This document shows, one piece after another, positions 819 through 58,340 of a stretch of DNA of 64,000 bases. Both the position numbers and the translations under genes were made by a program. The notes beneath the pieces were generated by a model that was not told the DNA's origin, made no database searches, and saw nothing but the letters and a program-made list of their open reading frames with translations. Origin of the DNA: a virus (Duplodnaviria; Caudoviricetes); IMG/VR virus record IMGVR_UViG_3300006805_000023; one strand, written 5' to 3'. The stretch's first letter is position 1. The number at the start of each line of letters is the position of its first letter.

Positions 819-847
819 AACCTAACACAGGTTTTAGCGCTTGTCAA
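819..847 (-). promoter_or_regulatory. Class-1 sigma70-type promoter TTGACA-N17-TAGGTT
   Basis: Reverse strand TTGACA agcgctaaaacctgtgt TAGGTT cccaac ATG. Confidence 0.85.
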
Positions 848-853
848 GTCCCC

Positions 854-1237
854 TCAGCTTTCCCAAATCAGGACTGGCTTGGGCTCGATCTTTGCCAGTT
901 GCTCGAAAGCAACCTCCAGGGCTGAGAGCTTGGTGAGTCGCTCAGGAGAGTACCACGTGCAGCCTTTGGCAAGGTCCTCACCGTCAACCTCCACACCGAC
1001 CTCCCCAACGTTCGTGATGTACCCGACCTTGCCACGCTTGCCTGGGTGGCGGCGGTCGCGGTCGCTGATTTTCACACGGTCATCGACCGCGAGGGGTTCA
1101 CGCTGCTTGGGTTGCGAGGAGGGGACAAGTTCATACTCGGTGAGGTAGATGGTTGTGATTTCGAGGTCGATGGTGGAAGCATAACCTTGTGCTCCCTTAT
1201 AAGATGCCACCAGAAGATCCTCCTTATAAGACGCCAC
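854..1237 (-). CDS. Hypothetical protein with KOW/SH3-like segment
   Basis: LAVDDRVKISDRDRRHPGKRGKVGYI resembles a KOW/SH3 barrel; start uncertain. Confidence 0.55.
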   Translation of the reverse strand: MASYKEDLLVASYKGAQGYASTIDLEITTIYLTEYELVPSSQPKQREPLAVDDRVKISDRDRRHPGKRGKVGYITNVGEVGVEVDGEDLAKGCTWYSPERLTKLSALEVAFEQLAKIEPKPVLIWES

Positions 1238-1572
1238 CCTTTGATCCAGGCACCTACGCAGCTAAGACCTTTGCTTGGTGGTCTTGGCATCCGGCCAACC
1301 TGCAGCATCTGGCGAGTGGCTGGCGCAGGACTTGTTGGGAAGCTCCCACTGAAGAGCGCGCCATGGACTTGATCCCGAACCTTCAGGGGAACGAGCACTG
1401 CAAGCTGATCGCCGAGGGCTTTGGTGATCTGGTCGAGGTTTACGACCTCCCACCGCGTAACCCAGGGCAATGGCTCGAATACCGTGACACTCTGGCAGCC
1501 ACCAAGAAGGCCGCACTCGCCAGAGCCGAACTCGGAATCAAGGAACTTGACAAACGCCAAGTCCTACCATAA
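1204..1572 (+). CDS. Hypothetical protein (start 1204 or 1363)
   Basis: ORF 1189..1572; ends inside the next promoter; start uncertain. Confidence 0.5.
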   Translation: MPPEDPPYKTPPFDPGTYAAKTFAWWSWHPANLQHLASGWRRTCWEAPTEERAMDLIPNLQGNEHCKLIAEGFGDLVEVYDLPPRNPGQWLEYRDTLAATKKAALARAELGIKELDKRQVLP

Positions 1573-1575
1573 GTT
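1547..1575 (+). promoter_or_regulatory. Class-1 promoter TTGACA-N17-TAAGTT
   Basis: TTGACA aacgccaagtcctacca TAAGTT tccag ATG(1581). Confidence 0.85.
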
Positions 1576-1580
1576 TCCAG

Positions 1581-2468
1581 ATGAACCCGCCCACTGACCC
1601 CGCTGTTGTCCAGGAACTTATCCTGGCTTGTGCCAACCTGCTTGATTACGCCGAAATGCGAGTCGCCCACGATGGTTCGATGACGGTCGATGACATCATG
1701 TGGCGTCTGAAAAACGTCATCCCGAAGACCGGCAAAATCATGAAGGCCCACCACATCGGCTGCAACCAGACGACCCGCGAGGTAGACCTCTACCGGATTC
1801 GCGCCCTGCTGGCACGCATCGCCCCACCTGAGACGACCAAGATTGAGTTCCGGGGCAAAGCCAAGGACATTGGGGCCTGGGCTGAAATCATGCGGGAGGA
1901 GCTTGGAGTGCACCATGAGACAGTCGTTGTCACCGGCCCTGATGAAGAGACTATCACCTACAACATCGCCTTCGACCAGTGGGGGAAGGTGCACGCCAAG
2001 CACTGGAATCGCCCGTATGCTACTGGGCTGTCTGGAATCCGCTGTTGGAAAGACATCTTGTCGTTTACCTTCCCGAACGGCAACGGGGTCGGCCAATACA
2101 TCAAACCTGACTACCGGACCTGGAGTGACATCATGCAGGGAGGCCCAAAGCTGGCCGACATCCCGTGCACCATTGAGATCGTGATTTGGGATAAACCACG
2201 GTCGCTCATGTGGTGGTCGGACTTCCTGCGCGCTAAGAAGCTGACCCTTGAGATCATCGCGAAGGACGGCAAGCCCAGCTCAGTCATCAAGTGCCAGCTC
2301 ACTTATCGGAAGTGGAAGGAGATCTACGACGAGATCTGGGACAAACCCTTCCCAGAGACGGAGTACACGTGGGGCCAGTGCACCAACGGCTTCTCATTCC
2401 CGGACTTCCCACGCGGCATCCACCCAGCCGGTGGAGGCTCCATCAAGGCTCCGCTACTTGACAAGTGA
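1581..2468 (+). CDS. Hypothetical protein (295 aa)
   Basis: Long ORF with normal composition, 5 nt after a class-1 promoter. Confidence 0.85.
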   Translation: MNPPTDPAVVQELILACANLLDYAEMRVAHDGSMTVDDIMWRLKNVIPKTGKIMKAHHIGCNQTTREVDLYRIRALLARIAPPETTKIEFRGKAKDIGAWAEIMREELGVHHETVVVTGPDEETITYNIAFDQWGKVHAKHWNRPYATGLSGIRCWKDILSFTFPNGNGVGQYIKPDYRTWSDIMQGGPKLADIPCTIEIVIWDKPRSLMWWSDFLRAKKLTLEIIAKDGKPSSVIKCQLTYRKWKEIYDEIWDKPFPETEYTWGQCTNGFSFPDFPRGIHPAGGGSIKAPLLDK

Positions 2469-2486
2469 CAAGAGCTGTGCTAAGTT
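2458..2486 (+). promoter_or_regulatory. Class-1 promoter TTGACA-N17-TAAGTT
   Basis: TTGACA agtgacaagagctgtgc TAAGTT cccca ATG(2492). Confidence 0.85.
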
Positions 2487-2491
2487 CCCCA

Positions 2492-3076
2492 ATGAGCAAC
2501 ATCATCCCCTTCGTCCTCCCCGTCGTCGCAACCGCCCCTAAGACCGTCGTCACCCTCGCCGGACCAAAGCGGTTCCACACGCCCCAAGAGATCCGCGACA
2601 TCCTGAAGGCCGCCGGAGCCAACGCCTCCAAGGTCTCGGTCAAGGTCAACAGCTCTGCCAACTACATCACCGTGACAGTGCGCGATCACAAGGTCCTCCC
2701 TTTGGTCGAGAAGATCGCAGCTGACCTGGACTCCTGGAAGTCTGATATGGGCGACTGCGCATCGGGTCAGGCGGTCAACGTTGAGCTCTCCCACGCAGCC
2801 AAGGAGGCAATGGCCGCCCCGTTCATGGACGTCATCAACTACGTGGCGTCCCATGCGATCCCAGTGATGGGCCAGGGCCAGGAGATCGCGCCTGATATCC
2901 TGATCTGGCACAACACTCAGGGCCTTTGGCTCGAAACCCGCTCCGGCGTGCGTCGTTCTTACATCTGGACCAGAAACGTCGTAGCACAGGAGCCGTCGGC
3001 CCTCGCCAAGCTGGCGCTCGATCTGGCCAGCCTCACCAACGTCGTCGAAACCGAAAAAGCCACTAAAGCAGCATGA
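2492..3076 (+). CDS. Hypothetical protein
   Basis: ORF 2465..3076 trimmed to the promoter-proximal ATG (MSNIIPF). Confidence 0.8.
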   Translation: MSNIIPFVLPVVATAPKTVVTLAGPKRFHTPQEIRDILKAAGANASKVSVKVNSSANYITVTVRDHKVLPLVEKIAADLDSWKSDMGDCASGQAVNVELSHAAKEAMAAPFMDVINYVASHAIPVMGQGQEIAPDILIWHNTQGLWLETRSGVRRSYIWTRNVVAQEPSALAKLALDLASLTNVVETEKATKAA

Positions 3077-3695: not shown

Positions 3696-3701
3696 GTTCT
3701 T

Positions 3702-4895: not shown

Positions 4896-4909
4896 CCCTG
4901 GAAGAAAGC

Positions 4910-5245: not shown

Positions 5246-5258
5246 GAGTGTTCAATAA

Positions 5259-5845: not shown

Positions 5846-6136
5846 TTAGAGGGAGAAGGTTTGTGGGGCGAGGGTGGTGCGGGTCTGGGTCTCAGAGTCC
5901 CAAGTCGTGAGGGTGACGACCAGCTTGACTGCGCCACGGAAGTAATCACGGCGGATCATGCCCTGCGCCTTGCGGGCGTAGCCGTCGAGGTTGGATTTGA
6001 CGGTCTGGCCGTAGCTGGCTGCTCCGCCGGTGAGGCCGAGACTTTTGCCGGAGGCGTCCTGACAATCGACCTTGCAGTCGGAGCAGCGGACCTTGGAGTT
6101 GAGAACGGCAGGGGCTAGAGTGTAGGAGGTGGTCAT
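5846..6136 (-). CDS. Hypothetical protein, leaderless
   Basis: ORF 5846..6151 trimmed to ATG 6136, 5 nt after a class-1 promoter. Confidence 0.75.
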   Translation of the reverse strand: MTTSYTLAPAVLNSKVRCSDCKVDCQDASGKSLGLTGGAASYGQTVKSNLDGYARKAQGMIRRDYFRGAVKLVVTLTTWDSETQTRTTLAPQTFSL

Positions 6137-6141
6137 ATAGG

Positions 6142-6170
6142 AACGTAACACAGATCCTGACGTTTGTCAA
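6142..6170 (-). promoter_or_regulatory. Class-1 promoter TTGACA-N17-TACGTT
   Basis: Reverse strand TTGACA aacgtcaggatctgtgt TACGTT cctat ATG. Confidence 0.85.
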
Positions 6171-6959: not shown

Positions 6960-6988
6960 TTGACGGGGCGTCCTGTTGGCCCTACCGT
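6960..6988 (+). promoter_or_regulatory. Class-1 promoter TTGACG-N17-TACCGT
   Basis: 9 nt before ATG 6998. Confidence 0.6.
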
Positions 6989-6997
6989 AGAGCCCTT

Positions 6998-7558
6998 ATG
7001 GAAAACTCTGCATCTAACGCTTCGTCCTTAGCCGCTCGGCTTGATCTCTCCCCTAAGTCTGTGGCCCAGACGACTCTCGACATCCGTAACGCTGTCTTGC
7101 CTAAGAAGGAGCCACGTGTTCCCTCTGAGTCTGAAATGCGGGCGGCCTATGATGCTCTGCAGTGGTTGGAGGGGCGGGGGAAGCAGGCGTCGGCCTTGAA
7201 GTTTAACGAGGACACTGGTGAGCTGCTCTTGGTGGTGGACGGGATCGGGTGGCATTGTGGTGCTGAGGACGGTGGGGTGGCGGAGGCGGTCAGGCTGGCG
7301 TCGCAGTGGTGGGGCCAGCGTAAGGCCAAGCTGAGCCACTACTCCAAGCTCTCTTCAATCCGGCGTGCTTTGGAGGCTGCTGACCCGGTCGCTGGGCTCA
7401 AGCGTTTCGAGGAGTATGAGGCGGCTTGGCAGGCGGTCCTTGGGGCGGCGACGAATGATGAGCTGTATGGTATTCTGCAGGAGCAGATCGCCTTGGTGGA
7501 ACAGGAGGCCGCCGAGAAGCTGGGCGCGGTCCCCGTGCAGACTCTCCCCACCGCTTAA
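6998..7558 (+). CDS. Hypothetical protein; shares a domain with the C-terminus of 7582..9396
   Basis: ORF 6911..7558 trimmed to the ATG after the promoter. Confidence 0.75.
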   Translation: MENSASNASSLAARLDLSPKSVAQTTLDIRNAVLPKKEPRVPSESEMRAAYDALQWLEGRGKQASALKFNEDTGELLLVVDGIGWHCGAEDGGVAEAVRLASQWWGQRKAKLSHYSKLSSIRRALEAADPVAGLKRFEEYEAAWQAVLGAATNDELYGILQEQIALVEQEAAEKLGAVPVQTLPTA

Positions 7559-9577: not shown

Positions 9578-9908
9578 ATCGTGCGGACGCCGTCTCTTTA
9601 TGACCGCTACCAACTGTCTGGCCTGCGGCTTCCAGCACGGCTCCGACAACGTAGATGAGCACCGCCGTCTCTGGATTGAGGGCGGCATGCCATGGTGCGG
9701 GGCCGAAGCTCCAACCGGCTGGCATCCGCTCCAGATCCTCGCTGCTATGGCCCTCAGGAAGTCCCTGGAGCGCGTGCAAGGCCGCCCACCCAAGGAGTCA
9801 CCGTTATACTCGGAGGTTGAGATCCCGAGGAGCAGTTTTGTGCCGCGTGGCGACCGGGACTCCCAGCAGGATGCGGACCACCAGTCAGAGGAGGCCGCAG
9901 CGGTATGA
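9555..9908 (+). CDS. Zn-ribbon protein
   Basis: CESC...CLAC; trimmed to ATG 9555. Confidence 0.65.
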   Translation: MIKIVHCESCGRRLFMTATNCLACGFQHGSDNVDEHRRLWIEGGMPWCGAEAPTGWHPLQILAAMALRKSLERVQGRPPKESPLYSEVEIPRSSFVPRGDRDSQQDADHQSEEAAAV

Positions 9909-10099
9909 TGGCTTTTGCGTTCATGAAACTCCTGGCTGAGAAGATCAAGGAGAAGGGCGGCGACTTCGAGCTGAAGGCGCACGATGGCATGGGCGACCTA
10001 CGACCGGTGACCGGCCTGGGTGTCTCAATGGTCTCGCGTGGCTCCTTGTTCCTTGAAGAGGTTTACGTGGACACCAGAGAGTTTGGACAGGCGGGTTGA
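9905..10099 (+). CDS. Hypothetical protein (64 aa)
   Basis: ATGA-coupled. Confidence 0.65.
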   Translation: MMAFAFMKLLAEKIKEKGGDFELKAHDGMGDLRPVTGLGVSMVSRGSLFLEEVYVDTREFGQAG

Positions 10100-10124
10100 C
10101 TTTCTCGAAGTCCTGGATTAGCTT
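10096..10124 (+). promoter_or_regulatory. Class-1 promoter TTGACT-N17-TAGCTT
   Basis: 6 nt before ATG 10131. Confidence 0.75.
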
Positions 10125-10130
10125 CTCGCC

Positions 10131-11288
10131 ATGGACCAAAAACCACTACCAACGCCGGAGCCAGGCGTCTTCCCTATTCCAGGGCCTTGTTACTACCTGA
10201 CCGGCCCCGACGCCTTCGTCCAGCTCAAGGAAACCCTGAGCAAGGCTCCGACGGACGAGGAGGCCAAGAAGGCTCTGGACGAATTTGTGATCAAGTTCCC
10301 TGACGTGGCCCGGTGGATGAAATGGCAAACTGGAGATGTCGAGAAGGCCCTCAGCCAAATCGAGCCAGCCCCTGAGCAACGCACCGCGTGGAATGGTAGG
10401 ATGCAGGCCCTTAGCATCAAGCATCAGAAGAGCATCGAGCGGGCTACCAACGTTGTTATGCAGCGCAATGCTCTCAACTTCAACATCCAAGGCACGTTGA
10501 CTGGCCGTGTGAGCGGCAGCGCCTCGAACGTGACCGAGGAGCCTAGAATCCGAGGCTGCACAAGAGCTGAGCTGGCTGAGAGGTACGATGTGTTTCTGCG
10601 CGAAGTCCGGCTGGTTCAACGCGACCTCGGTTTATTCAAGAAGAAGCCTACGAAGCCCACGGTGTGCTGGCCGATCCGAATGTGGCGCAAGCTCACTGGG
10701 TGGAAGCGTCCAGCCAAGCCGGGGCGCAAGATCCTGGACAACGAGGAACTGCACCGCTGGGCTGACCGCATCTTCAAGCGGTATCTGACAGACGCTCCCT
10801 ATATCATCCGGACCTTCTGGGGCGGATCGGTCGCTTTCATCACCAAGGACGTAGGCGGCATGCAGATGTGGTATTGCTCGTCCTTCGGGACCTGTTCCAA
10901 CAAGTCGCTCCAGTATGGGCTGCGCGTCGGCACGCTCACGAACTCCCCTGAGGCTTCGTTAGCAATGTTCAGATTGAGCTATCCTGGACTGTTCGACGGA
11001 ACAGTGGTCCCCCGAACATTTGACGAGGGGCTGTGGTGGTGGAACAAACGCTGTAGCCTGACCCCTCAGGGAGACCAGAAGCTAATGTTCAACAAGAAGG
11101 GCGAATCGTGGTGGTGGCAGGTTGTTGAGGGCAATTATTGGGCGGTCTTCAAGGGCAACCGCAGGATTTGGCCGATCAGCCGCGACGTCCAGCCGCTCAC
11201 CCCGAGGGACGCCATGATCGGGCTGCGGCTCCACGACCCAAGGATGTTGCCGATCGAAACCTTCAAAGGCTTCAAAGGAAAACTCTGA
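10131..11288 (+). CDS. Hypothetical protein (385 aa) with an isolated Pol A-like TGRxS motif
   Basis: FNIQGTLTGRVSGSASNVTEEPR; Trp-rich C-terminal half. Confidence 0.85.
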   Translation: MDQKPLPTPEPGVFPIPGPCYYLTGPDAFVQLKETLSKAPTDEEAKKALDEFVIKFPDVARWMKWQTGDVEKALSQIEPAPEQRTAWNGRMQALSIKHQKSIERATNVVMQRNALNFNIQGTLTGRVSGSASNVTEEPRIRGCTRAELAERYDVFLREVRLVQRDLGLFKKKPTKPTVCWPIRMWRKLTGWKRPAKPGRKILDNEELHRWADRIFKRYLTDAPYIIRTFWGGSVAFITKDVGGMQMWYCSSFGTCSNKSLQYGLRVGTLTNSPEASLAMFRLSYPGLFDGTVVPRTFDEGLWWWNKRCSLTPQGDQKLMFNKKGESWWWQVVEGNYWAVFKGNRRIWPISRDVQPLTPRDAMIGLRLHDPRMLPIETFKGFKGKL

Positions 11289-11289: not shown

Positions 11290-12594
11290 ATGGACCTCTT
11301 GCCGAACCTCCCGCCCAACCTCCCACCGCCGGAACTCTCAACCCCAGAGCAGAGAAAGGCAGCCTTCATGCGTGCCATGGGGGAGCTGCACAAGCACCAG
11401 AAGGCCATTGTGGGTCTGACCAACCACGTCCGGCTCCTGCAGACCCTCGCCAAGGGCACCATGAAGGAGCGCATGCTGGTGGCTCTCCAAAACGCTGGCC
11501 CTCTTTATCAAACGCTTTGCCCACGCAAGTACCGCGACATCCCGACGCACGCTTCGCCGCGCAACCTGCTCATTATGTGCGTCCTTGCAGCTCTCGTGTT
11601 CAGGGACTATGGGGCCGTCAACGGCTTTGACCTGAAGAACATGCGGCCCGAGCAATACGCGGACCTCATGAAGCGGTCGGATTCGATGTCGCATGGTTAC
11701 GCGAAGGAGAACAGCCTGAGGCTGTGGCGTGTGATGGGCGACATGATCGAGAATGACTCGCCAACCTACTACCTCGACCAGGAGGCTTCCGAGGAAATGC
11801 TGGAGACCCAGTGTGACGACCTCAAGATGACGTGGGACGACTTCGACTGGCCTCACCCGGTCTTCATGTTGATGCCTCCGATTGGCTTGTACAAGAACAG
11901 CCCGCTGCTCATTCTGGCACACCGTGACGACCAGTACGTGACCTTCACAGGTCTGACAGAGGAGATGGTGGACTACAACCAGAAGCTGTTCGCCACCGAG
12001 TTTCCGATCAAGAGCGAGATCGGAGCTTCGGTCAAGAGCTTGATGGACGCCAAATACCACAGGCTCATAGGAGGAGACAAGATCCGGGACATGGAGGACG
12101 GCCTCAGGGATTTCATCAACAAGACCATGCAGGTGTGCGTCAACGCCCTGCTGGCCATGGTGGCGGAGCCCAAGTTTGAGGAGCTGGAGAAGTCAGGCGC
12201 GCAACCACGCCCAGCCAGTCAAGAGCGCCGTGCGCGTGACCCGTCTGCCCTCTGGAATCCGACCTTCTTCAAGATGGAACGGACCAGACAGGCGTCGGAG
12301 GGGAGTAGCGATGGTAAGGGCGGTCACCGACGCCCCCACCCACGGCGAGCGCACTGGAAGAGCGTCTGGCTGGACGGCAGCGAGGACACCCAACTGGAAC
12401 CGGGGAAACGTGCCAGGCACACCCAAGACCAGCGGGTCGCCCATTGGGTCACGAGCATTGAAGGTGACGTCGTGACCCTCAAAAACGCCGCTGGTGAGGA
12501 GAAGTCCGTGCACCGCTCCGAGGTGAAGCCGTCCAAGGTCAAGTTCCGGTGGATCAAACGCCGGATCGTCGGGCTCAAGAACCACCTAGCTTGA
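11290..12594 (+). CDS. Conserved phage protein with a C-terminal PHxRRxHW motif
   Basis: GGHRRPHPRRAHWKSVW...RWIK C-terminus typical of a phage family of unknown function. Confidence 0.85.
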   Translation: MDLLPNLPPNLPPPELSTPEQRKAAFMRAMGELHKHQKAIVGLTNHVRLLQTLAKGTMKERMLVALQNAGPLYQTLCPRKYRDIPTHASPRNLLIMCVLAALVFRDYGAVNGFDLKNMRPEQYADLMKRSDSMSHGYAKENSLRLWRVMGDMIENDSPTYYLDQEASEEMLETQCDDLKMTWDDFDWPHPVFMLMPPIGLYKNSPLLILAHRDDQYVTFTGLTEEMVDYNQKLFATEFPIKSEIGASVKSLMDAKYHRLIGGDKIRDMEDGLRDFINKTMQVCVNALLAMVAEPKFEELEKSGAQPRPASQERRARDPSALWNPTFFKMERTRQASEGSSDGKGGHRRPHPRRAHWKSVWLDGSEDTQLEPGKRARHTQDQRVAHWVTSIEGDVVTLKNAAGEEKSVHRSEVKPSKVKFRWIKRRIVGLKNHLA

Positions 12595-12619
12595 CAAGCG
12601 TCGGCTTGTGTGATAGAGT
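12591..12619 (+). promoter_or_regulatory. Class-1 promoter TTGACA-N17-TAGAGT
   Basis: Followed by a short leader to ATG 12654. Confidence 0.8.
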
Positions 12620-12653
12620 TCCAGTCAAGTTACGAAACCCAGCACCTGTCAAC

Positions 12654-12989
12654 ATGGACGACTTACTCTTACTGCAGCACACCCTCGGCCAAGACCACTT
12701 CACCGTCAAAGAAGTCGTCCTCGATGGCGTTTTCATGGTCGCCATCAAGACCAACGGAAGAGCAATCCCGAAGGCCTTCGTCGCCAAGTGGGAAAAGGCT
12801 CTGGGTCAGGCCGGAGCAAAACTCGATGAGGCCTGTGGTTCGGATAATGGCGAGACCACGACCCGTCGTTACGAGGTCCCGGTGCTGCGCGACACCATCT
12901 TCCTGATCACCACGGCCAAGAAGCTCTGGAAAACCGATTACCTCTCCGCCAAAATCACAGTCAGCACCACCTACGAAGTCACCCAATGA
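12654..12989 (+). CDS. Hypothetical protein
   Basis: ORF 12549..12989 trimmed to the first ATG after the promoter. Confidence 0.7.
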   Translation: MDDLLLLQHTLGQDHFTVKEVVLDGVFMVAIKTNGRAIPKAFVAKWEKALGQAGAKLDEACGSDNGETTTRRYEVPVLRDTIFLITTAKKLWKTDYLSAKITVSTTYEVTQ

Positions 12990-13420: not shown

Positions 13421-13424
13421 AGCC

Positions 13425-13944: not shown

Positions 13945-13973
13945 TTGACAGGCGCTAAGAAGCGTGTTATACT
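13945..13973 (+). promoter_or_regulatory. Class-1 promoter TTGACA-N17-TATACT
   Basis: 5 nt before ATG 13979. Confidence 0.9.
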
Positions 13974-13978
13974 TCGCA

Positions 13979-14704
13979 ATGAACCCAATGCCGTATAAGA
14001 TCAGAGCACGCAATCAAGCACTGGATGATGATGGTAAGCCGATCATGCCGGTCTGTAGGGAGTGTGGAGTTCCGGTCATCGTGTGCATTGAGTTCAAAAT
14101 ACACCCGTCGAACACTACCCTGTATAAGTCCAATGATGCTCGGTTTCGCTGCTGGAAAAGGCGCATAGCGAAGTGGGAGTCTGGCTTCAAATTCATGTCC
14201 CACTCCAAAGGCCGTAAGCTCTCTCAAGCCAACAAGGACAAGCTTAGGGCTGCGAACCTTGGTCGTAAGCTCTCTCAAGAAGCCAAAGACAAAATAGGTG
14301 CTGCAAATCGTGGACGCAAGCACTCTCAGGAGGTTAGAAATAAACAGAGCGCGATGAGGACAGGCCGCAAGCTCTCTCAGGAACACAGGGACAAACTGAG
14401 AGCCGCCAGTTCAGGCAAGACGCACACTCAGGAGACCAGAAACAAAATGAGTGCAGCACTCAGCGGTCGCGAGTTCTCCCAGGAACACAGGGACAAACTG
14501 AGAGCCGCGAGTCTTGGTCGTAAGCACTCCCAAGAAGCTAAGGACAAAGTGAGTGCCGCTGTTCTAGGACGTAGGCATTCCCAGGAGACTAGAGAGAAAC
14601 TTAGTGCTATCCACAGAGTCTCTGGCAACATCGAAAAGTTGCTTCAGCGTCGTCGTGACCGTTCCGCTCTCAAGCGCCTAGCAGCCCTAACAAAGATCTC
14701 ATGA
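13979..14704 (+). CDS. NUMOD3-repeat DNA-binding protein (8 x 17 aa), no visible nuclease domain
   Basis: Eight GRKxSQExxxKxxAA repeats; N-terminal CRECG. Confidence 0.85.
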   Translation: MNPMPYKIRARNQALDDDGKPIMPVCRECGVPVIVCIEFKIHPSNTTLYKSNDARFRCWKRRIAKWESGFKFMSHSKGRKLSQANKDKLRAANLGRKLSQEAKDKIGAANRGRKHSQEVRNKQSAMRTGRKLSQEHRDKLRAASSGKTHTQETRNKMSAALSGREFSQEHRDKLRAASLGRKHSQEAKDKVSAAVLGRRHSQETREKLSAIHRVSGNIEKLLQRRRDRSALKRLAALTKIS

Positions 14705-15386: not shown

Positions 15387-15415
15387 TTGACAGGTGATAA
15401 GGGCTGTGTTATCTT
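15387..15415 (+). promoter_or_regulatory. Class-1 promoter TTGACA-N17-TATCTT
   Basis: 5 nt before ATG 15421. Confidence 0.9.
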
Positions 15416-15420
15416 TCCAC

Positions 15421-15897
15421 ATGGCCACCTCCCCTAATTCCCCCTCCCAGTTGTCCGTTGCTAAACTCCGTGCTTGGATGAAAACGAATGGCGCTGAGGT
15501 TGCCAAACTGATCAAGCTGCGCGAGTTCGCCGAATCAGAAAAGAAGCGCGTCACGGCCTACACAACCCCGGTTCTGGCCGAATACGGCTTCGTTAACTCA
15601 GACACCGGTGCCGTCATCACAACGGACGAAAGCCTGTTCATGTGCGAGGGTGACGAGGCCAGGATCAACGAGTACTACCAGCGCACCTATGAACTGCACG
15701 CTGCGAACGGATGGACTGGAAACCACGAGTCTTGCCCAGCACTGGTGGCCGATTATGCTGCCATCAACCAAGAGAACGTGCTGCTTCCCCTGCTCGCCCA
15801 GCTCATGGGGGTGACGCTGGAGCAGCTGCAATTCAAGTATCTCACTGCTAAGAAGGCTGTCGAACTCGTCGTTGACTTCTACAAATCACGCAACTAG
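15421..15897 (+). CDS. Hypothetical protein, leaderless
   Basis: ORF 15394..15897 trimmed to the promoter-proximal ATG. Confidence 0.8.
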   Translation: MATSPNSPSQLSVAKLRAWMKTNGAEVAKLIKLREFAESEKKRVTAYTTPVLAEYGFVNSDTGAVITTDESLFMCEGDEARINEYYQRTYELHAANGWTGNHESCPALVADYAAINQENVLLPLLAQLMGVTLEQLQFKYLTAKKAVELVVDFYKSRN

Positions 15898-17615: not shown

Positions 17616-18278
17616 ATGAAAGTAAACGACCTCGTGGAGTCATTGTTGAACGAAAGCGCTGCCTGGACCTTCGACTACGGCGGGGAGTTTCCCCAAGCCT
17701 GGCGTGTCAATGTTGAGGGAGGTCTCGACGTCGTGTACACTGACTCAGGTGGACGTGACATCTCAGCGGTTGCTGACACCTGGCCCAAGGGAACCACCTT
17801 CGAGTCCTTGCCGGATCACGACCCTAGATCCAGAGCAGTGATCCGAGCAGATTCGGGCGAGGGTGCTGAGTACGACCTTGTCAACAGAGTCTCCGAGCTG
17901 ATAGATGGGGAAAACGCTCAGGAGGCGTGGGATCTAGTGATGAAAAACGGCAAAAGGGTGCGCGTCGGGAAGCCACCTACGCCCAGTAAAAAGGCCGCCA
18001 AAGATGCATTCCTCCAGGGAACCTGGGAGGCTATGATGGATGTGTGGGAAAACGCGCCTACCACGCCAGAAGGAAAGGCTGAGGCCATGGCCAGGGGGAA
18101 CAAAATGTACCAAAAAGCCAATAATCTCATGGTTGGTGACGAGAGGACTAGACTACAGAATGTGGCAACGTCCCTGAGAAGCGTCGGTGGTGGCTACGGG
18201 CCGAGCGATGACATGCGGAAGGCTCTGGAAGCACGAGCAAGAGGCGAGGCATCAAGACATCCGTGGGATGTGTATTAG
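17616..18278 (+). CDS. Hypothetical protein, possible internal head protein
   Basis: N-terminal MKVNDLVESLLNES. Confidence 0.8.
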   Translation: MKVNDLVESLLNESAAWTFDYGGEFPQAWRVNVEGGLDVVYTDSGGRDISAVADTWPKGTTFESLPDHDPRSRAVIRADSGEGAEYDLVNRVSELIDGENAQEAWDLVMKNGKRVRVGKPPTPSKKAAKDAFLQGTWEAMMDVWENAPTTPEGKAEAMARGNKMYQKANNLMVGDERTRLQNVATSLRSVGGGYGPSDDMRKALEARARGEASRHPWDVY

Positions 18279-18592
18279 TGCGGGACGCGCTGCAGACCAA
18301 GCGCCGTCAGGTCGATCACCCAGTCGTTCATGACTGCGCCTTCTTGGCGCTTGTGACCCTCGATCTCCAGCAAGTTGAAGCCGGAATCATAGGCCTCGTC
18401 CTCGTCGCTGGCTTCAACCAGCATCTTTGCAAACGAGATCCCGCCTGGATCAGTGTGGGGAATGACATCGGGCTGCGGCTGGCCGCTGGTCTTTTCGACC
18501 AGCCCGTTTAACAGGGAGACACTTTCTGGGTTTGCTGGAAGCACCTGGCACTGGACGTAGAGGTAGAGGCGGAGTGGGTCGTTTGGGATCAT
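18275..18592 (-). CDS. Hypothetical protein (105 aa)
   Basis: Stop overlaps the convergent gene; plausible composition. Confidence 0.65.
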   Translation of the reverse strand: MIPNDPLRLYLYVQCQVLPANPESVSLLNGLVEKTSGQPQPDVIPHTDPGGISFAKMLVEASDEDEAYDSGFNLLEIEGHKRQEGAVMNDWVIDLTALGLQRVPH

Positions 18593-18950
18593 CCGCCACC
18601 CTACCCTTGCCCTCCTTAGCTGTCAATTCCGTTTTCAAGCCTCCGAGCAACGCCCCAAGGGTCCCAAGACGTTGTTCCATGTCGGCCAGCTTCTCCTCGT
18701 TGGCGGGGGTCCCCTGGCTCCAGTATCCGTACTGGCCGTCCACGCAGCTTACCTCCCTCCAGAGCGGGGTTGCCGTGCCGTTCCCTCCTAGTATGGCGCG
18801 TGCCAGGTCCCAGCACTTCTTCGTGGTCTGGCCCTCGACCACGCTCGTCGTGCTGCCGTAGCGGAGAATGGCAACCGGGTTGACGTAGCGGACGCCGTTT
18901 ACGGTGCGTCCGCCCTTGACCCTTGATACTTCAATGCTTGCAAACTTCAT
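18450..18950 (-). CDS. Hypothetical protein (C-terminal part of ORF 18450..19187)
   Basis: ATG 18950 MKFASIEVSRVKGG; overlaps the downstream gene by 143 nt. Confidence 0.45.
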   Translation of the reverse strand: MKFASIEVSRVKGGRTVNGVRYVNPVAILRYGSTTSVVEGQTTKKCWDLARAILGGNGTATPLWREVSCVDGQYGYWSQGTPANEEKLADMEQRLGTLGALLGGLKTELTAKEGKGRVADDPKRPTPPLPLRPVPGASSKPRKCLPVKRAGRKDQRPAAARCHSPH

Positions 18951-18969: not shown

Positions 18970-19236
18970 ATGCTCCAGCTCATCGAGACCCTCACCGAAG
19001 CCAAACCGAAGTGCCATTGCTCAGATGAGGGCATTCGCAAGATCATCAAAAGCGTGGGTGGCAACGTGGCCGAAATGCAGGAGACGCAGGCCCAGTTCGT
19101 CGTCACGGTCGAGCTTAGCAAAAACAACTTCGAGAAGCTCGAAAAGGCCATCAACGATAAGTTTCCGGACCACCTTCGCACTATCACGAAGTGTGGTCCG
19201 GCTCATGCCTCAGTGGCGATCTGGAAGAAGGACTAG
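18970..19236 (+). CDS. Hypothetical protein with N-terminal LIETLTE
   Basis: ORF 18904..19236 trimmed; TAGATAT at 18953-18959. Confidence 0.6.
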   Translation: MLQLIETLTEAKPKCHCSDEGIRKIIKSVGGNVAEMQETQAQFVVTVELSKNNFEKLEKAINDKFPDHLRTITKCGPAHASVAIWKKD

Positions 19237-19556
19237 GCGGTGCGCGTCACGTAGTCCGTGATGAATTCGACTTCACCACCGATGTAAGCTTCGCGCTGGG
19301 TGCGGTTCGAGAAAGCGAACTCCCAGTCACCCATCGACGCTGTCAAGACGCCCTTGCCCAGTCCGATGGAGTCGTCACCAGTGACCTTAACCCAGGAGTC
19401 GGCGTGCTGCTGCACCATCTTAAGGACGCCGACGCGGCTCTTGCGGGAGGTGTAGCCTGCCAGGATCTTGGTGCCGTCAGGCCCGGTGGCGATAATCTCG
19501 TAGCGGGTCTTGAAGTTCTGGATGCGGGTCAGCTTGGCGGTAAGTTCGGGGCTCAT
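19233..19556 (-). CDS. Hypothetical protein, leaderless
   Basis: 5 nt after a class-1 promoter. Confidence 0.8.
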   Translation of the reverse strand: MSPELTAKLTRIQNFKTRYEIIATGPDGTKILAGYTSRKSRVGVLKMVQQHADSWVKVTGDDSIGLGKGVLTASMGDWEFAFSNRTQREAYIGGEVEFITDYVTRTA

Positions 19557-19561
19557 TCAGG

Positions 19562-19590
19562 AACTTAACACAGGTTCTAGCACTTGTCAA
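19562..19590 (-). promoter_or_regulatory. Class-1 promoter TTGACA-N17-TAAGTT
   Basis: Reverse strand TTGACA agtgctagaacctgtgt TAAGTT cctga ATG. Confidence 0.9.
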
Positions 19591-19594: not shown

Positions 19595-21259
19595 TCAGCG
19601 CTTGTGGTAAATGAAGCAAAGCTTCTCAGAGCCCCAGACTTTCCGGAGCAGATTCGTCTCCGCGTAGGCCGCCTCAGTGGTTGACATCTTTTGAGCCCTG
19701 CCCCAGACGGTGCGCTTGTGAACGACCCAGCCGAGCTGATCCACGTAGTAGTAGTCGGGAGCGACCGTGTGACTGAACCGGAAGTTGCTGGCCCGGTAGA
19801 GGCCGCCTGAGTGGCCCATCGTGGTGTCCGCGTAGGTCACAACGTCCTGACCGCTAAGCTTGAGACAACGCGACAAAAACCACGATCCAAGGTTCTTGAC
19901 CTGGTAGGCCGGGTCAAGCCAGAACCGCGTCAGCTCCACGGCGTCCTTGTATTTGAGGGTCTGCTCGTTGCGCTGGAACGGCCCAAACGAACACGCCCCG
20001 ATGACGGTTTCACCCGAGAACAGCCCAAGATGTTGTTTGCCACGGCTTGACCCCAGGTAATGACGCGAGTAAACGACCTGCGACTCCCGGAACGTGATCT
20101 CGCGAATCGCCAGAGCCTTGAAGTCAACTTCGTGCAACGCTGGCTTGTCAGCCAGGCCTAGCATCTCTTTGATCCGGTGCAGCACGCGCCCCTCGGTGTG
20201 GAACTCAAGCTCCCAGATCACTGCCAGCCTGACACCGGGGCAATAGCGCTCCACGTAGGTCGCCTTAGCCTTGTCACGCGGACCGGCGGCTGGCTTGCCA
20301 TGCCAGTACTCCCCGTGGCACTCGATCAAAAGGTTGTGGTCTGGAACCCAGACGTCGAAGTTCCAGGGTCCGATCGGATGCTCGGACGCCCACTTGATGC
20401 CAAGCGAATCCAGGATAGCAAACACTGCCTTGTTGAGAGATGACACCACTGGTTGGTTAGCGCGGGCCACAGCCATCTTGGCCTTGACAACCTCGCTCTG
20501 CATGGCGTCCCTGACGCTCTGCTTAAACTCTCCAGTAGCGCCAAGCTCGCGTGACTTCGCACAAAAACGCTCCACCCAGACAGGGTCGTCCCAGTAGGAC
20601 TGCAGCCGGTGCTGCAGCTCAGGATCGGCCATCGCTTCCAGGTGCCTGCGCCGAACCTCCGGGTTGTCCCAGTTGGCCTTCACAATGCCTGTCAGGCGCT
20701 CCCGGTACTCTGGGTTGGCCCAGCACTGCTGCGACATTGTGGACATAGCAGCCGCGTAGTCCGGGTCCTGCCAGCGCACCAGGGTGGCGGTGCGCAGCCG
20801 CTCGCGCAGGCTGATCGACCGCATCGCTAGCAAATGCCGGTCGCGCACCTCTGGGTTCGAGTACGACTCCTTGAGAGTCATAGCCATGTTGGCGCGGTAT
20901 ACCGGGTCTGCAGCACGCCTGCGGATCATGGTCAGCCAGCCCTCATCCTGTGACCGCTTTCTGATGGCGGCCCGCATCCGACCAGAAGTTTCTGGATCAG
21001 TCCAGGCCGCCTTGCTCTGCTGCGACAGGCGCTGGCGCTCTTCGGAAGTGGCTGGCACGCCCTTGTTATGTGGGACCACCCGTCCTTCAGCCTGTGCCTC
21101 CTTGAAACCGGCCTGCTGTTTCTCCCGATAGTCGGGTGACTTTATGACGCACTTAAAACAACGGGTCTCGCCCTTGCGCTTGCGGCGGGACACGGTCATG
21201 CGGTTCACGATCTCTATCGTTCCGCACGCCGAACATGTCACTGTGTAAACCTTAGCCAC
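19595..21259 (-). CDS. Homing-endonuclease-like fusion: Zn ribbon, WxDPExR helical repeats, Vsr/DUF559-type nuclease, Mom-like GNAT domain
   Basis: IGPWNFDVWVPDHNLLIECHGEYWHG; HYLG...ELTRFW...VVTYADTTMGHSGGLYRASNF. Confidence 0.8.
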   Translation of the reverse strand: MAKVYTVTCSACGTIEIVNRMTVSRRKRKGETRCFKCVIKSPDYREKQQAGFKEAQAEGRVVPHNKGVPATSEERQRLSQQSKAAWTDPETSGRMRAAIRKRSQDEGWLTMIRRRAADPVYRANMAMTLKESYSNPEVRDRHLLAMRSISLRERLRTATLVRWQDPDYAAAMSTMSQQCWANPEYRERLTGIVKANWDNPEVRRRHLEAMADPELQHRLQSYWDDPVWVERFCAKSRELGATGEFKQSVRDAMQSEVVKAKMAVARANQPVVSSLNKAVFAILDSLGIKWASEHPIGPWNFDVWVPDHNLLIECHGEYWHGKPAAGPRDKAKATYVERYCPGVRLAVIWELEFHTEGRVLHRIKEMLGLADKPALHEVDFKALAIREITFRESQVVYSRHYLGSSRGKQHLGLFSGETVIGACSFGPFQRNEQTLKYKDAVELTRFWLDPAYQVKNLGSWFLSRCLKLSGQDVVTYADTTMGHSGGLYRASNFRFSHTVAPDYYYVDQLGWVVHKRTVWGRAQKMSTTEAAYAETNLLRKVWGSEKLCFIYHKR

Positions 21260-21298
21260 TGTTCACCCTACACCCGAGGAGCCGCTCGGTCAACCCAG

Positions 21299-26085: not shown

Positions 26086-26090
26086 CCCAG

Positions 26091-26119
26091 AAGATAACAC
26101 AAACTTTAGTGCTTGTCAA
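26091..26119 (-). promoter_or_regulatory. Class-1 promoter TTGACA-N17-TATCTT
   Basis: 5 nt before ATG 26085. Confidence 0.9.
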
Positions 26120-31343: not shown

Positions 31344-31847
31344 TTAGTAAAGGTCCTCGCTGTAAAGCTCGCCCACACCTTTGGAGCCAGTTACCCGGCG
31401 GATCTGCCCAGCGGCCTCTGCTACTTTCCAGGCCTCCTCGCGGGTCAGGAACACGCCCTTCTGGTCCACGAAGCCCTGGTCTGCGACCTTGAGGTGATAT
31501 CCCTCTGCCCCGTAAGCCAGTCGCATGATGGCGCGCATTTCAGGTGAGAAGTGCCGGATGCCGGTCACGATGCTGCCGTCCTTCATCAGCATGGCGGCGC
31601 ACACGATCAGACGCGGCAGCTCGATGCGCTTCTTCGCTGCTCTTGAGGCACGGTCCGTGTTACCGCGATACTGGACGCCACTGCAGAAGCGCGTCCCGTA
31701 GTGGGCAGGAATGATCGGAGACCAGTAAGGGACGGCCGTGCTGGTCCCGCTGTCAGGCGGGGGATAAGTCAGGCACTCATCACCGGCCTGTTTGGTCCAG
31801 TTCATTTTTTCGGCCTCCTCGCCGGAGAAGTAAACGGGATCGTTCAT
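31344..31847 (-). CDS. Conserved phage protein (QGFVDQ...TREEA...LYSEDLY family)
   Basis: C-terminal motif typical of this phage family. Confidence 0.8.
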   Translation of the reverse strand: MNDPVYFSGEEAEKMNWTKQAGDECLTYPPPDSGTSTAVPYWSPIIPAHYGTRFCSGVQYRGNTDRASRAAKKRIELPRLIVCAAMLMKDGSIVTGIRHFSPEMRAIMRLAYGAEGYHLKVADQGFVDQKGVFLTREEAWKVAEAAGQIRRVTGSKGVGELYSEDLY

Positions 31848-32029
31848 GTCAAAGAAGCGAGGAGGTTACCCGAACCGACCAGACGGCCATAGCGATCATA
31901 AGTGCGGTTGGTGGAGGGATCGTAGCGACCGACCCGGACGCCCCAGCGATCAGTCGCCGTGACGATACCGGAGCCGGAGGTTTGCTGACGCTGGGTGACG
32001 ATGCGGTGGATGTCTTTGAGGAGGTTCAT
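31844..32029 (-). CDS. Hypothetical protein (61 aa), leaderless
   Basis: 5 nt after a class-1 promoter; ATGA-coupled downstream. Confidence 0.75.
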   Translation of the reverse strand: MNLLKDIHRIVTQRQQTSGSGIVTATDRWGVRVGRYDPSTNRTYDRYGRLVGSGNLLASLT

Positions 32030-32034
32030 GACGA

Positions 32035-32063
32035 AACCTAATATAGGAACTAGCGTTTGTCAA
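32035..32063 (-). promoter_or_regulatory. Class-1 promoter TTGACA-N17-TAGGTT
   Basis: Reverse strand TTGACA aacgctagttcctatat TAGGTT tcgtc ATG. Confidence 0.85.
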
Positions 32064-41637: not shown

Positions 41638-42741
41638 ATGCTGCTTGGCCCTCGCTTGCTGGACTCCCTCCAGCGACAATTCGAATGCGTCTGGACGGAC
41701 TCAAACGGACAAGTTAACGTAACTTGTCCTTTCTGTCAACTGAGAGGGATGGCCACACCCGATCTAAGCGGTCATTTAGGTCTCAACTTTGAGCTGGATG
41801 CGGCACATTGTGTCAGGTGTGACTGGGGCAGGAGAGGGCTGCGCGCCTGGCTCGGCAAGGGGTTTGGGATCTCAGGAATCGCGGCCACCATGCAAGAAAC
41901 CAGGTCCACACTGGACGGCTTGCGCAAACGCCTCAACCCACGCAAAGCCGTCTATCAGCTGGCACCGGCCAAACTCCCATCTGACTGCTTCTTCTTCGAG
42001 GATTGGCACTTCGATGAAAACTTTCCTCACATCCGGTCGCTGTTCGACAAAGGGATCACGAAAGAGGAGATTCTGAGGCACCGCCTAGGGTTTCAGGCCG
42101 AGGGGCGTTACGCGGATTACGTGATCTTCCCGTTTTTCGAGGACGACGAGGTAGTGTACTGGCAGGGACGCAGCCATCGCGACAACGCTGAGCTTAAGAA
42201 GGTCAACCCACCACCGTCTGAAGCCCCGCTCGGCAAGTCTCACTGGCTCTACGGGTTCGAGCAGGCCCAAAAGGGCTGCTGCGTCGCTATCGTGGAAGGG
42301 ACTCTGGACTCCATCACAACCACCAGCTGGCTGATCGGCCTGAAGGGGGAGGGCAATGCAGCTCTGGGCTTGAACGGTACCGCGATGAGCTTCCCGGATG
42401 GTGAGACTCACCCGCTCAACACTCACTTCGGCAGGCTGTGCAGTTTGGAGCCATCCGAGGTCTTAATCTTGCTGGACCGCGACGCCATCAAGAAGGGCGA
42501 GGAACTGGCCTTGCTGCTCGCCAGTGCTGGGCTCCCAGCCAGAGCCGTCCCCCTACACTCAGCCAAGGACCCCAACGACGCTGGCTCCGACAAACTCACA
42601 GCAGCCTATTCGGGAGACGCACTCGACCGGCTGCGCCAACGGGTCGATCAGGACACCGCGATAGTGGTACAGGCCCCCAAACCAACCAAGAACAGTAGCC
42701 TTGACCAACTGCGCGAGCGCGCACTTAGTTTACCCGTATGA
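41638..42741 (+). CDS. DNA primase (DnaG-like, Zn finger plus Toprim)
   Basis: CPFC...HCVRC; IFPF...YWQGR; IVEGTLD; LLDRD. Confidence 0.88.
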   Translation: MLLGPRLLDSLQRQFECVWTDSNGQVNVTCPFCQLRGMATPDLSGHLGLNFELDAAHCVRCDWGRRGLRAWLGKGFGISGIAATMQETRSTLDGLRKRLNPRKAVYQLAPAKLPSDCFFFEDWHFDENFPHIRSLFDKGITKEEILRHRLGFQAEGRYADYVIFPFFEDDEVVYWQGRSHRDNAELKKVNPPPSEAPLGKSHWLYGFEQAQKGCCVAIVEGTLDSITTTSWLIGLKGEGNAALGLNGTAMSFPDGETHPLNTHFGRLCSLEPSEVLILLDRDAIKKGEELALLLASAGLPARAVPLHSAKDPNDAGSDKLTAAYSGDALDRLRQRVDQDTAIVVQAPKPTKNSSLDQLRERALSLPV

Positions 42742-46044: not shown

Positions 46045-46073
46045 TTGACAGATTGACAAGCCTGTGTTACGTT
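46045..46073 (+). promoter_or_regulatory. Class-1 promoter TTGACA-N17-TACGTT
   Basis: 5 nt before ATG 46079. Confidence 0.9.
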
Positions 46074-46078
46074 ATTAC

Positions 46079-46582
46079 ATGGCTAAAACTACCACACCCT
46101 ACGAACCCCAAATTAACGACATCGCTGCTTATCGCGGCTCAACTGGACTCGTACTCAGCCTCGGCGGAGTCGGCTCCATGCAAGACGTCCCACTCGGCTC
46201 CATGCAAGACGTCCCACTCGGCTCAACCGAGTATCTCAGCCACGAGCCCACGGTTCTGATGGTTGATCTCAGCATCATCAGCTCCGGCATGGACCGCCAA
46301 CTCCACAGCTTCCGAGTCCCGACCCGTTTGGTCACTTATGTCGGCAAATACAACCCAGAACTGGATGCGGTGGCTGCTGCACCCGTAGCAGTGCCAATCA
46401 AGGAACTGATCGTCGCCGACCTTCTCGGAGCCCCCGACGTCGGGATGACGATCTCACAGCTAGCAGCCTCTCTGCAGCGTCCGTCGGCTGCTATTCACAG
46501 CTCTCTGCAGAGCCTAAAGACTGCTGGACGGGTGGCTCAGCGGGAGACGCTGGAGTGGCATCTGCTGCCTCAGGCTGCGTAG
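46079..46582 (+). CDS. Protein with C-terminal winged HTH
   Basis: MTISQLAASLQRPSAAIHSSLQSLKTAGRV. Confidence 0.75.
   Translation: MAKTTTPYEPQINDIAAYRGSTGLVLSLGGVGSMQDVPLGSMQDVPLGSTEYLSHEPTVLMVDLSIISSGMDRQLHSFRVPTRLVTYVGKYNPELDAVAAAPVAVPIKELIVADLLGAPDVGMTISQLAASLQRPSAAIHSSLQSLKTAGRVAQRETLEWHLLPQAA
46172..46219 (+). repeat. Exact 24-bp tandem duplication (GSMQDVPL x2)
   Basis: ggctccatgcaagacgtcccactc x2. Confidence 0.95.
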
Positions 46583-57355: not shown

Positions 57356-57485
57356 CCGATTCGGTCAGAGTAGGAGCAGCCTGCGCGGCTTCGGAGGCCG
57401 AACCAAAGGTTCCCTTGACTGGAGCAACGCGCTTGCCCTTGGAGTCAACCAGAATCCACTTTTCCTGAGATGTGCTGTTTTGCAT
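57312..57485 (-). CDS. 57-aa protein missed by the ORF track
   Basis: Read manually: MQNSTSQEKWILVDSKGKRVAPVKGTFGSASEAAQAAPTLTESVRQGGVTPKQLLEE; fills the 163-nt gap. Confidence 0.55.
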   Translation of the reverse strand: MQNSTSQEKWILVDSKGKRVAPVKGTFGSASEAAQAAPTLTESVRQGGVTPKQLLEE

Positions 57486-57517
57486 AGTGAGTGAGCTAGA
57501 AAGCAGGTCAGCTTTCT

Positions 57518-58315
57518 ATGAACAAAAACGGACCATCCATGCCCAGTAACAATCAGCTACCAGATCTCCCTTCTTTCGACCTCGGCGGAGCCAGACTCAT
57601 CCTTGCAGATGAAGAGTCACCCGACTTCGAAAAAGAGGCCAAGAAGCCAACCGCCCCGCCTCCCCCACCGGTGAGCTTGTTCGACGCCCTCAAAGCGACA
57701 TGCGCAGGCACCCCAGCCGTACCGCCAACGGGCTTCCAGTCGGCCAAGGCTTTGGGCAACTTGAACGACAAAAGGTTCATCCCATCGGAAGAAGGCCCGT
57801 TGATGGGGGACGTCGGAGCCTCTGAGCCCAGCCTAGGGCAACGGATGCTGCAGGAACTCAACAACGCTGTCCTCAGCAACTCCATGGACGCCACGACAGC
57901 CCGCGAAATGGCGGTCATGGTGGAAAACTGGCAGACCCGGCTCGATCTCATCGGAATCGGCATGACTGCCTATGGGATGTCACGAGTGCAGAGCGTCACC
58001 CAGATGGCGGAGGACGTCGAAAGGCACATCTGGGAGAGACTCGCCGACCTCCCAGTCACAGAGGCTATCGGCCTGCTCAAAGTTCTCCACAAAGACCGGC
58101 TGGCCTTCATCAACTTGGTTGGCAACAGGGCCTCGAACCCTACCATATCCAGCCCGGACGCACTGTCTGGAGGCCTTAACGGACGCGCTGAGGAGTCCTC
58201 AAAGCCAAAGGTCTCCATGATCAAGCCGGACGGTCGCAAGAGGCTCCACCTGATGATCGGAAAGCTACGCAAGGTGATCGACGCTGATGCAACTGTGGTT
58301 GAGAGTCCCACTTGA
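57518..58315 (+). CDS. Hypothetical protein (265 aa), helical; small-terminase-like architecture possible
   Basis: Long ORF; function guess is weak. Confidence 0.7.
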   Translation: MNKNGPSMPSNNQLPDLPSFDLGGARLILADEESPDFEKEAKKPTAPPPPPVSLFDALKATCAGTPAVPPTGFQSAKALGNLNDKRFIPSEEGPLMGDVGASEPSLGQRMLQELNNAVLSNSMDATTAREMAVMVENWQTRLDLIGIGMTAYGMSRVQSVTQMAEDVERHIWERLADLPVTEAIGLLKVLHKDRLAFINLVGNRASNPTISSPDALSGGLNGRAEESSKPKVSMIKPDGRKRLHLMIGKLRKVIDADATVVESPT

Positions 58316-58340
58316 CGTAGCGGTAGGGAGCACTTACTGT
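58312..58340 (+). promoter_or_regulatory. Class-1 promoter TTGACG-N17-TACTGT
   Basis: 7 nt before ATG 58348. Confidence 0.7.

Follow-up and report, generated by a model that had tools for sequence, protein, structure and literature searches.

The window analysed here, a 64,000-nucleotide (nt) stretch taken whole, comes from a virus (Duplodnaviria; Caudoviricetes; IMG/VR virus record IMGVR_UViG_3300006805_000023) and carries 16 copies of a promoter-like element, TTGACA-17 nt-TANNNT or a close variant, aimed at open reading frames (ORFs), 15 of which open within a few nucleotides of the element. The genes of the window include an intein-bearing DnaB-type helicase, a Rad3-type helicase, a primase and DHFR, as well as virion genes for a T4 baseplate protein, a gp13-like adaptor and tail-fibre-like giants; no tRNA genes are found in the window. 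A megablast search of GenBank phages with a 4-kilobase (kb) gene returns no close relative, only distant protein-level matches to jumbo and T4-like phages, and T4-type markers are present in the window (T4_baseplate) and in its relatives (gp13, rIIB and Y16D).

Scanning both strands of the window for TTGAC-N18-TANNNT yields 18 matches, compared with 0.78 ± 0.91 (maximum 3) in the 100 dinucleotide shuffles that served as background. Sixteen of the 18 are aimed at an ORF on their own strand, and 15 of these promoters stop 5-9 nt short of the start codon that opens the ORF, with a gap of 5 nt at eleven sites, 6 nt at two, and 7 and 9 nt at one each; the remaining site, at 12591, is separated from its gene by a 34-nt leader. 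An ATG follows the -10 box by 5-7 nt in 13 of the 18 matches, where 0.038 is expected per site (binomial P = 2e-15), and the start codon is AUG at 14 of the 15 short-gap sites and GTG at the other. About one match is expected by chance, and the two matches without an ORF (285 and 41711) fit that number. With the spacer included, a position weight matrix is overfitted to the most similar copies and fails to detect four weaker but genuine sites; it was left out of the counting.

The reverse test starts from the codons: the 14 ATG or GTG codons that follow TANNNT by 4-8 nt and have a -35 box of at most one mismatch all open ORFs of at least 50 amino acids (aa), and none of them is a non-ORF ATG. 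Where TANNNT lies at the same distance and the -35 box has two or more mismatches, real ORF starts occur only at the background proportion. The TTGACA-type class is therefore discrete, and a weaker, -35-less subclass of these promoters is rejected, as no surplus of real ORF starts appears at two or more -35 mismatches. The scan thus bears out the enrichment at gene starts that had been suggested in a preliminary description of this DNA, and all of the thirteen sites listed there, as well as a similar case at 6960, are recovered. Both exceptions that it had named also hold, in that 12591 does not abut its ATG and the gap at 6960 is wider than at the others. Its spacing of 5-7 nt stands as well, with a corrected count, since 12 of the 13 listed sites and not eleven lie at that distance from an ATG; its list, taken as complete, falls short by two promoters, at 18598-18626(-) and 21265-21293(-).

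The elements share the consensus (G)GAC-TTGACA-A(G/A)(C/T)GCTAAG..C-TGTGT-TAnGTT-yCCnn-ATG. The -35 hexamer is exactly TTGACA at 12/16 sites and has one mismatch at the other four, the spacer is 17 nt long at 16/16, and the GC-tolerant -10 hexamer TANNNT is invariant at its T, A and final T; an extended -10 TG (-15/-14) is present at 9/16 sites and AC stands immediately 5' of the -35 box at 11/16. A -35 near TTGACA, a spacer of 17 ± 1 nt and a TANNNT -10 are the features of a sigma70/sigmaA-type promoter, and all three are found in these sequences. Upstream of the -35 box we find GGAC or GAAC and the stop codon of the preceding gene, which lies 4-7 nt before the box at most sites, coincides with the TGA within TTGAC at 10097-10099, 12592-12594 and 58313-58315, and falls inside the promoter spacer at 2466-2468 (site 2458), so that the intergenic space is the promoter alone. 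These upstream stops are 35-45 nt ahead of the next ATG. When the 90 nt before each -35 box are folded, a terminator-like hairpin appears at one site of the 16 (46045), and the other 15 adjoin coding sequence.

Individual sites and their genes are collected in Table 1. Behind the TTGACA-type promoters lie ORFans, a NUMOD3 endonuclease-like gene, a gene with a Mom-like domain and a 431-aa gene of family phrog_2319, a member of which carries the annotation 'RecT-like' in phage Tunturi_5; virion genes are not among them. This agrees with the accessory or early type that the preliminary description had assigned to them, and their expression is presumably early. The weaker site at 6960 would give a very short leader. 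For ORF 19595..21259, a codon-usage model favoured GTG 21208 over GTG 21259, and the latter is less certain as a start because it is a GTG codon.

Table 1. Positions of TTGACA-type promoters, pattern matches lacking an ORF, TANNTAT copies and GCTTTCT(T/A) sites in the window; the gap is counted from the -10 box to the start codon.
Feature	Position	Strand	Gap (nt)	Start codon	ORF	Remarks
TTGACA-17-TAGGTT	819-847 (element 810..847)	-	6	ATG 812	624..812, 62 aa	
TTGACA-17-TAAGTT	1547..1583	+	5	ATG 1581	1581..2468, 295 aa	no family
TTGACA-17-TAAGTT	2458..2494	+	5	ATG 2492	2492..3076, 194 aa	preceding stop in spacer
TTGACA-17-TACGTT	6142-6170 (element 6134..6170)	-	5	ATG 6136	5846..6136, 96 aa	
TTGACG-17-TACCGT	6960..7000	+	9	ATG 6998	6998..7558, 186 aa	weaker site
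TTGACT-17-TAGCTT	10096..10133	+	6	ATG 10131	10131..11288, 385 aa	TGA in -35 is stop of ORF 9905..10099
TTGACA-17-TAGAGT	12591..12656	+	34	ATG 12654	12654..12989, 111 aa	leader without Shine-Dalgarno sequence; TGA in -35 is stop of ORF 11290..12594
TTGACA-17-TATACT	13945..13981	+	5	ATG 13979	13979..14704, 241 aa	NUMOD3, homing-endonuclease-like
TTGACA-17-TATCTT	15387..15423	+	5	ATG 15421	15421..15897, 158 aa	
TTGACA-17-TAGGGT	18598-18626 (element 18590..18626)	-	5	ATG 18592	18275..18592, 105 aa	
TTGACA-17-TAAGTT	19562-19590 (element 19554..19590)	-	5	ATG 19556	19233..19556, 107 aa	
TTGACC-17-TAGGGT	21265-21293 (element 21257..21293)	-	5	GTG 21259	19595..21259, 554 aa	Mom-like domain
TTGACA-17-TATCTT	26091-26119 (element 26083..26119)	-	5	ATG 26085	24790..26085, 431 aa	phrog_2319
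TTGACA-17-TAGGTT	32035-32063 (element 32027..32063)	-	5	ATG 32029	31844..32029, 61 aa	
TTGACA-17-TACGTT	46045..46081	+	5	ATG 46079	46079..46582, 167 aa	hairpin and T-run upstream
TTGACG-17-TACTGT	58312..58350	+	7	ATG 58348	58348..59088, 246 aa	TGA in -35 is stop of ORF 57518..58315
Pattern match	285..313	-				no start codon or ORF; probably chance
TTGACA-17-TAACTT	41711..41739	-				orphan; directed away from neighbouring + genes; not followed by an ORF of 40 aa or more
TANNTAT	5261	-				
TANNTAT	6187	+				
TANNTAT	23850	+				
TANNTAT	24792	-				
TANNTAT	30556	+				
TANNTAT	30557	-				
TANNTAT	36078	-				
TANNTAT	40616	+				
TANNTAT	48457	+				
TANNTAT	50131	+				
TANNTAT	53559	+				
TANNTAT	60388	+				
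TANNTAT	62922	-				
GCTTTCT(T/A)	62714	-				
GCTTTCT(T/A)	60369	-				
GCTTTCT(T/A)	57503	-				
GCTTTCT(T/A)	32352	-				
GCTTTCT(T/A)	24402	-				
GCTTTCT(T/A)	16646	-				
GCTTTCT(T/A)	4908	-				
GCTTTCT(T/A)	17089	+				

The same layout is found in relatives, comprising four metagenomic contigs that carry a homologue of the 431-aa gene (L121, L123, L124 and L125) and three records from a pattern scan of IMG/VR (L075, L004 and L083); searches for the locus by single proteins, among viral contigs and genome contigs, gave no confirmed locus. In all seven, the 431-aa gene is preceded by TTGACA-17-TANNNT with a 5- or 6-nt gap to the ATG, at protein identities of 91% (L121), 44% (L125), 43% (L124), 39% (L123) and ~25% (L075, L004 and L083) and at GC contents of 36-59%. 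Alignment of the eight upstream regions leaves invariant only C+TTGACA+A, the TG, three bases of the -10 box (T, A and the final T) and the ATG, with spacer, discriminator and first codons all variable; as read from this alignment, it is the phylogenetic footprint of a predicted sigma70-type promoter coupled to its start codon. Promoter and gap are also retained by orthologues of gene 13979 in L121 and of genes 15421 and 18592 in L121 and L125, gene 32029 keeps its promoter in L121 at a gap of 6 nt, and the promoter at 12591 has a leader in L121 too, of ~35-37 nt. Over L121-L125 as a whole, the layout is conserved in 11 of 11 cases (genes 13979, 15421, 18592 and 32029, the 431-aa gene and the leadered gene 12654), and other IMG/VR phage records hold 3-17 promoter-ATG patterns each, compared with 0-1 for a reversed control pattern. 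In the cultured Aeromonas phage Aeh1 (L129, 2962-3021), the 431-aa gene has a homologue that follows TTGACA-16-TATAAT and then a 24-nt leader with GAGGA, a Shine-Dalgarno (SD) sequence; the leaderless layout therefore derives from an ordinary T4-type early promoter and is specific to the clade.

Within the spacer, the six bases directly after TTGACA are palindromic or nearly so (AGCGCT, AGTGCT, AGCACT) at 819, 13945, 19562, 26091 and 32035, and again in L121 at 9967, 18918 and 20472, not in the more distant relatives; this may be a lineage-specific operator or simply a trace of common cassette ancestry.

The gaps between -10 box and ATG are too short to hold an SD sequence, as the preliminary description had noted, and SD-like motifs are not above background anywhere in the window. 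Searching for GGAG, GAGG or AGGA at -18..-4 before starts, we find these tetramers at 4 of the 65 other predicted genes of the window, a depletion relative to the 15% background, and G itself is depleted immediately upstream of window gene starts. The rates in L121, L123, L124 and L125 are 9-19%, compared with backgrounds of 11-16%, while the control phages Aeh1 (9/10), roseophage DSS3_MAL1 (7/9) and Tunturi_5 (4/6) score high in the same test. The first 36 nt of the predicted leaderless mRNAs are C/A-rich and G-poor, and their minimum free energy of folding averages -1.3 kcal/mol, compared with -3.9 kcal/mol at other gene starts (P = 4e-4) and with -6.7 kcal/mol for positions +91..+126 of the same genes (P = 4e-4). 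Leaderless translation has three determinants, namely accessibility of the start codon, zero leader length and the identity of the codon as AUG (PMC8459731); 14 of the 15 short-gap sites have the AUG in sequence, and the 5' ends are accessible by folding.

A second motif, TANNTAT, has no -35 box and occurs 15 times in the window. At 13 of the copies, the start codon of an ORF of 50 aa or more follows after 4-9 nt, compared with 0-3 of 5-14 copies for control motifs. Two copies, at 30556/30557, overlap back to back between divergent genes, and the genes behind TANNTAT include the gp13-like adaptor and tail-fibre-type giants. We consider TANNTAT a candidate for a late promoter specific to the phage, from which leaderless mRNAs would arise as well; together, the two classes abut ~28 of ~81 predicted gene starts (15 + 13). 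The preliminary description had taken leaderlessness to be special to early genes, as a protection under stress on canonical initiation, and this view is not supported: SD-like motifs are at background everywhere and TANNTAT abuts virion genes, so there is no SD-led class from which the early genes could differ. Leaderless expression, as predicted from both promoter classes, is instead the general mode of the phage and not an early-gene device.

A further motif enriched upstream of ATGs, at a distance of 7-12 nt, is GCTTTCT(T/A). Of the 13 copies of GCTTTCT, 5 are found no more than 35 nt ahead of a predicted start, and the motif may represent a third class of promoter-like sequence or else a pyrimidine-rich element for translation.

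We favour, with a probability of about 0.8, the reading that the TTGACA-type sites are host housekeeping-sigma promoters by which a T4-like jumbo phage drives leaderless expression of early genes other than those for the virion. That they are sigma70-type, with transcription predicted to start on the start codon or immediately beside it, was also the proposal of the preliminary description, which is now backed by the enrichment statistics, the footprint, the geometry at orthologues and the unstructured 5' ends; the identity of the polymerase and its sigma factor, the exact transcription start and the mode of ribosome loading are what we infer beyond this. The host housekeeping holoenzyme (sigma70/sigmaA) would bind the near-consensus promoters on injected DNA and, given the 5-7 nt between the end of the -10 box and the start codon, RNA polymerase would start at or within 1-2 bases of the A of AUG. 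The resulting mRNAs would have neither a 5' untranslated region (UTR) nor an SD sequence, their 5'-terminal AUG would be bound by 70S ribosomes or initiator-tRNA complexes, and the unstructured, C/A-rich and G-poor first 36 nt may aid ribosome loading.

Several observations weigh against this reading. At 5 nt, the modal gap falls 1-2 nt below that of Deinococcus (6-7 base pairs, bp), and it is likewise 1-2 nt shorter than expected for the canonical Escherichia coli start, which is the 7th-8th base after the -10 box; with an E. coli-like choice of start, a fraction of the transcripts might start on the U or G and so lack an intact start codon. The spacers are alike inside the window and in L121 (AGCGCTAAG), and the resemblance among the sites therefore partly reflects shared ancestry and not independent selection. 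Finally, since only one site has an upstream terminator, read-through RNA should carry each gene as an internal cistron as well, with an AUG away from the 5' end, and such transcripts may contribute protein.

The likeliest alternative holds that the promoters are real and that transcription starts a few bases off, giving very short leaders or losing the AUG, with translation from a downstream start or from read-through RNA, by re-initiation or 70S scanning on polycistronic transcripts. The modal gap, set against the 6-7 bp of Deinococcus, fits this view, as do the lack of a terminator between genes at 15/16 sites, the preceding stops just 35-45 nt before the next ATG and site 6960, whose 9-nt gap would give a short leader anyway. 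However, the distance from -10 box to ATG is fixed in relatives down to 25% identity while the sequence between the boxes varies, a pattern that would hardly be expected if the start codon were not coupled to the site where transcription begins. Each ORF moreover opens precisely at its promoter-abutted codon, the 5' ends are selectively unstructured, and no SD sequence or other start signal is found downstream. We judge an offset start unlikely.

It is less probable still that a phage-encoded or phage-modified factor, be it a sigma, an activator or a repressor acting on the spacer AGCGCT or on GGAC, reads the motif and that the class is middle and not immediate-early. The only columns without variation across distant relatives are those of the canonical housekeeping-sigma contacts, TANNTAT already fits a phage-specific class, and the spacer consensus is lost in L123, L124 and L125, even if spacer and pre--35 bases are conserved in the window and L121 beyond what sigma70 needs and each related lineage has a spacer consensus of its own. 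A sigma-like candidate at 42738-43322 matches no Pfam or PHROG family. Least credible of all is the proposal that the repeats are chance matches or dispersed recombination or mobile cassettes, most copies lacking promoter function, for although the copies are near-identical within the genome and cassettes of T4-type phages known as promoter-early stem-loops (PeSLs) do mediate recombination (PMC2839356), the enrichment over chance is more than 20-fold, orientation and distance to the start codon are strict, orthologous sites diverge except in the promoter boxes and the ATG, and the PeSL stem-loop is missing at 15/16 sites.

The closest parallel to the predicted leaderless architecture is cellular. 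Leaderless genes with the -10 box directly before the ORF characterise Deinococcus-Thermus and are also found in Actinobacteria (PMC12340547, PMC4007540, PMC3160421), and in Deinococcus, TANNNT 6-7 bp before ORFs is an experimentally proven -10 element that gives efficiently translated leaderless mRNA (PMC12340547, PMC4007540). The sites described here resemble those of Deinococcus in having TANNNT a few nucleotides before AUG or GUG, no SD sequence and, as predicted, no 5' UTR. They differ in that the gap in Deinococcus is mostly 6-7 bp, the -35 box is often unrecognisable and the remaining genes have GGAG ribosome-binding sites, whereas here the gap is mostly 5 nt, a near-perfect -35 box stands at 17 nt, an SD-using class is absent, and the genome is that of a phage and not of a cell.

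Among phages, Sevostyanova and colleagues are said to have described in 2007 leaderless middle and late transcripts of phiYS40, a large myovirus of Thermus thermophilus. These leaderless classes reportedly arise from -35-less extended -10 promoters read by host RNA polymerase near the start codon, in a host phylum rich in leaderless genes; if so, the present phage differs in its full -35 box, in the early-type, non-virion nature of the genes and in being T4-like. The mRNA of lambda cI from PRM, in work of Shean and Gottesman from 1992, is reported to have the A of its AUG as first base and to be translated with no SD sequence, which would concern a single regulatory gene in an SD-using phage, compared with the genome-wide design predicted here. 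The jumbo phages phiKZ and AR9, whose transcripts have been mapped, show no leaderless transcripts, and our literature search found no description of a T4-like phage with systematically leaderless early genes.

T4 early promoters follow the host sigma70 consensus, and their transcripts are leadered with SD sequences. The sites of the window are like those of T4 and Aeh1 in placing host-sigma70-consensus promoters before early genes and unlike them in the absence of an SD leader. A more specific comparison is with the PeSLs of the T4-type phages RB49 and phi1, which are repeated early promoters of strong sigma70 consensus (Arbiol et al. 2010, PMC2839356) that lie between small non-essential ORFs and combine a stable stem-loop terminator, an AT-rich upstream region and an SD sequence before the start codon (PMC2839356). 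Our sites share with PeSLs the strong, repeated sigma70-like promoters between small ORFs, beginning right after the upstream stop, but have a stem-loop at 1/16 sites only, GGAC or GAAC upstream, and neither SD sequence nor leader. Membership in this family is rejected, since only one terminator-like hairpin is found upstream of the 16 sites, and no SD sequence.

Leaderless mRNAs are already known, as is, reportedly, a phage with leaderless classes (phiYS40). What the present case suggests in addition is that early promoter cassettes of the T4 type can give rise to a form that lacks both SD sequence and leader and whose promoter fills the whole intergenic space, and a large uncultured phage clade appears, from its sequences, to run both early and late genes leaderless. 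This would offer a clue to the host, whose ribosomes should be SD-independent, and it predicts that transcription starts on the A of AUG and that an inserted leader abolishes expression. A more far-reaching version, which we hold to be doubtful, is that the clade (GC 36-59%) abandoned SD-dependent initiation altogether, with about one-third of the window genes expressed from 5'-AUG mRNAs of the two promoter classes (host-sigma and TANNTAT) and the rest by coupling. If that were true, the phage could disable or outcompete SD-led host translation, for example via the anti-SD of 16S rRNA or via initiation factors, while keeping a private leaderless translation channel for itself.

A practical consequence is that gene callers that rely on a ribosome-binding site will misplace starts in such phages. 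The automatic call at 5162-5395 of L121, for instance, begins 48 nt upstream of the promoter-abutted ATG 5210, within the promoter, and looks like a start miscalled for want of a ribosome-binding site.

Some further observations concern individual loci. The orphan match at 41711-41739(-) sits in a ~300-nt stretch that runs from a tail-fibre-like gene (end 41587) to the primase, and could be a chance match or an antisense or small-RNA promoter. Site 46045, the sole TTGACA-type promoter of the virion-gene region, lies near a transposase-like gene at 47299-48426(-) (phrog_506/12300, E 4e-27) within that region. The DnaB-type helicase at 21299-23791(-) is 830 aa long and includes a Hint/homing-endonuclease intein; in L121, related at 91%, the protein (12215-13642) is 475 aa and intein-free, and L125 has an 832-aa form. 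A second intein, of the LAGLIDADG type, lies within the 936-aa ORF at 54545-57355(+).

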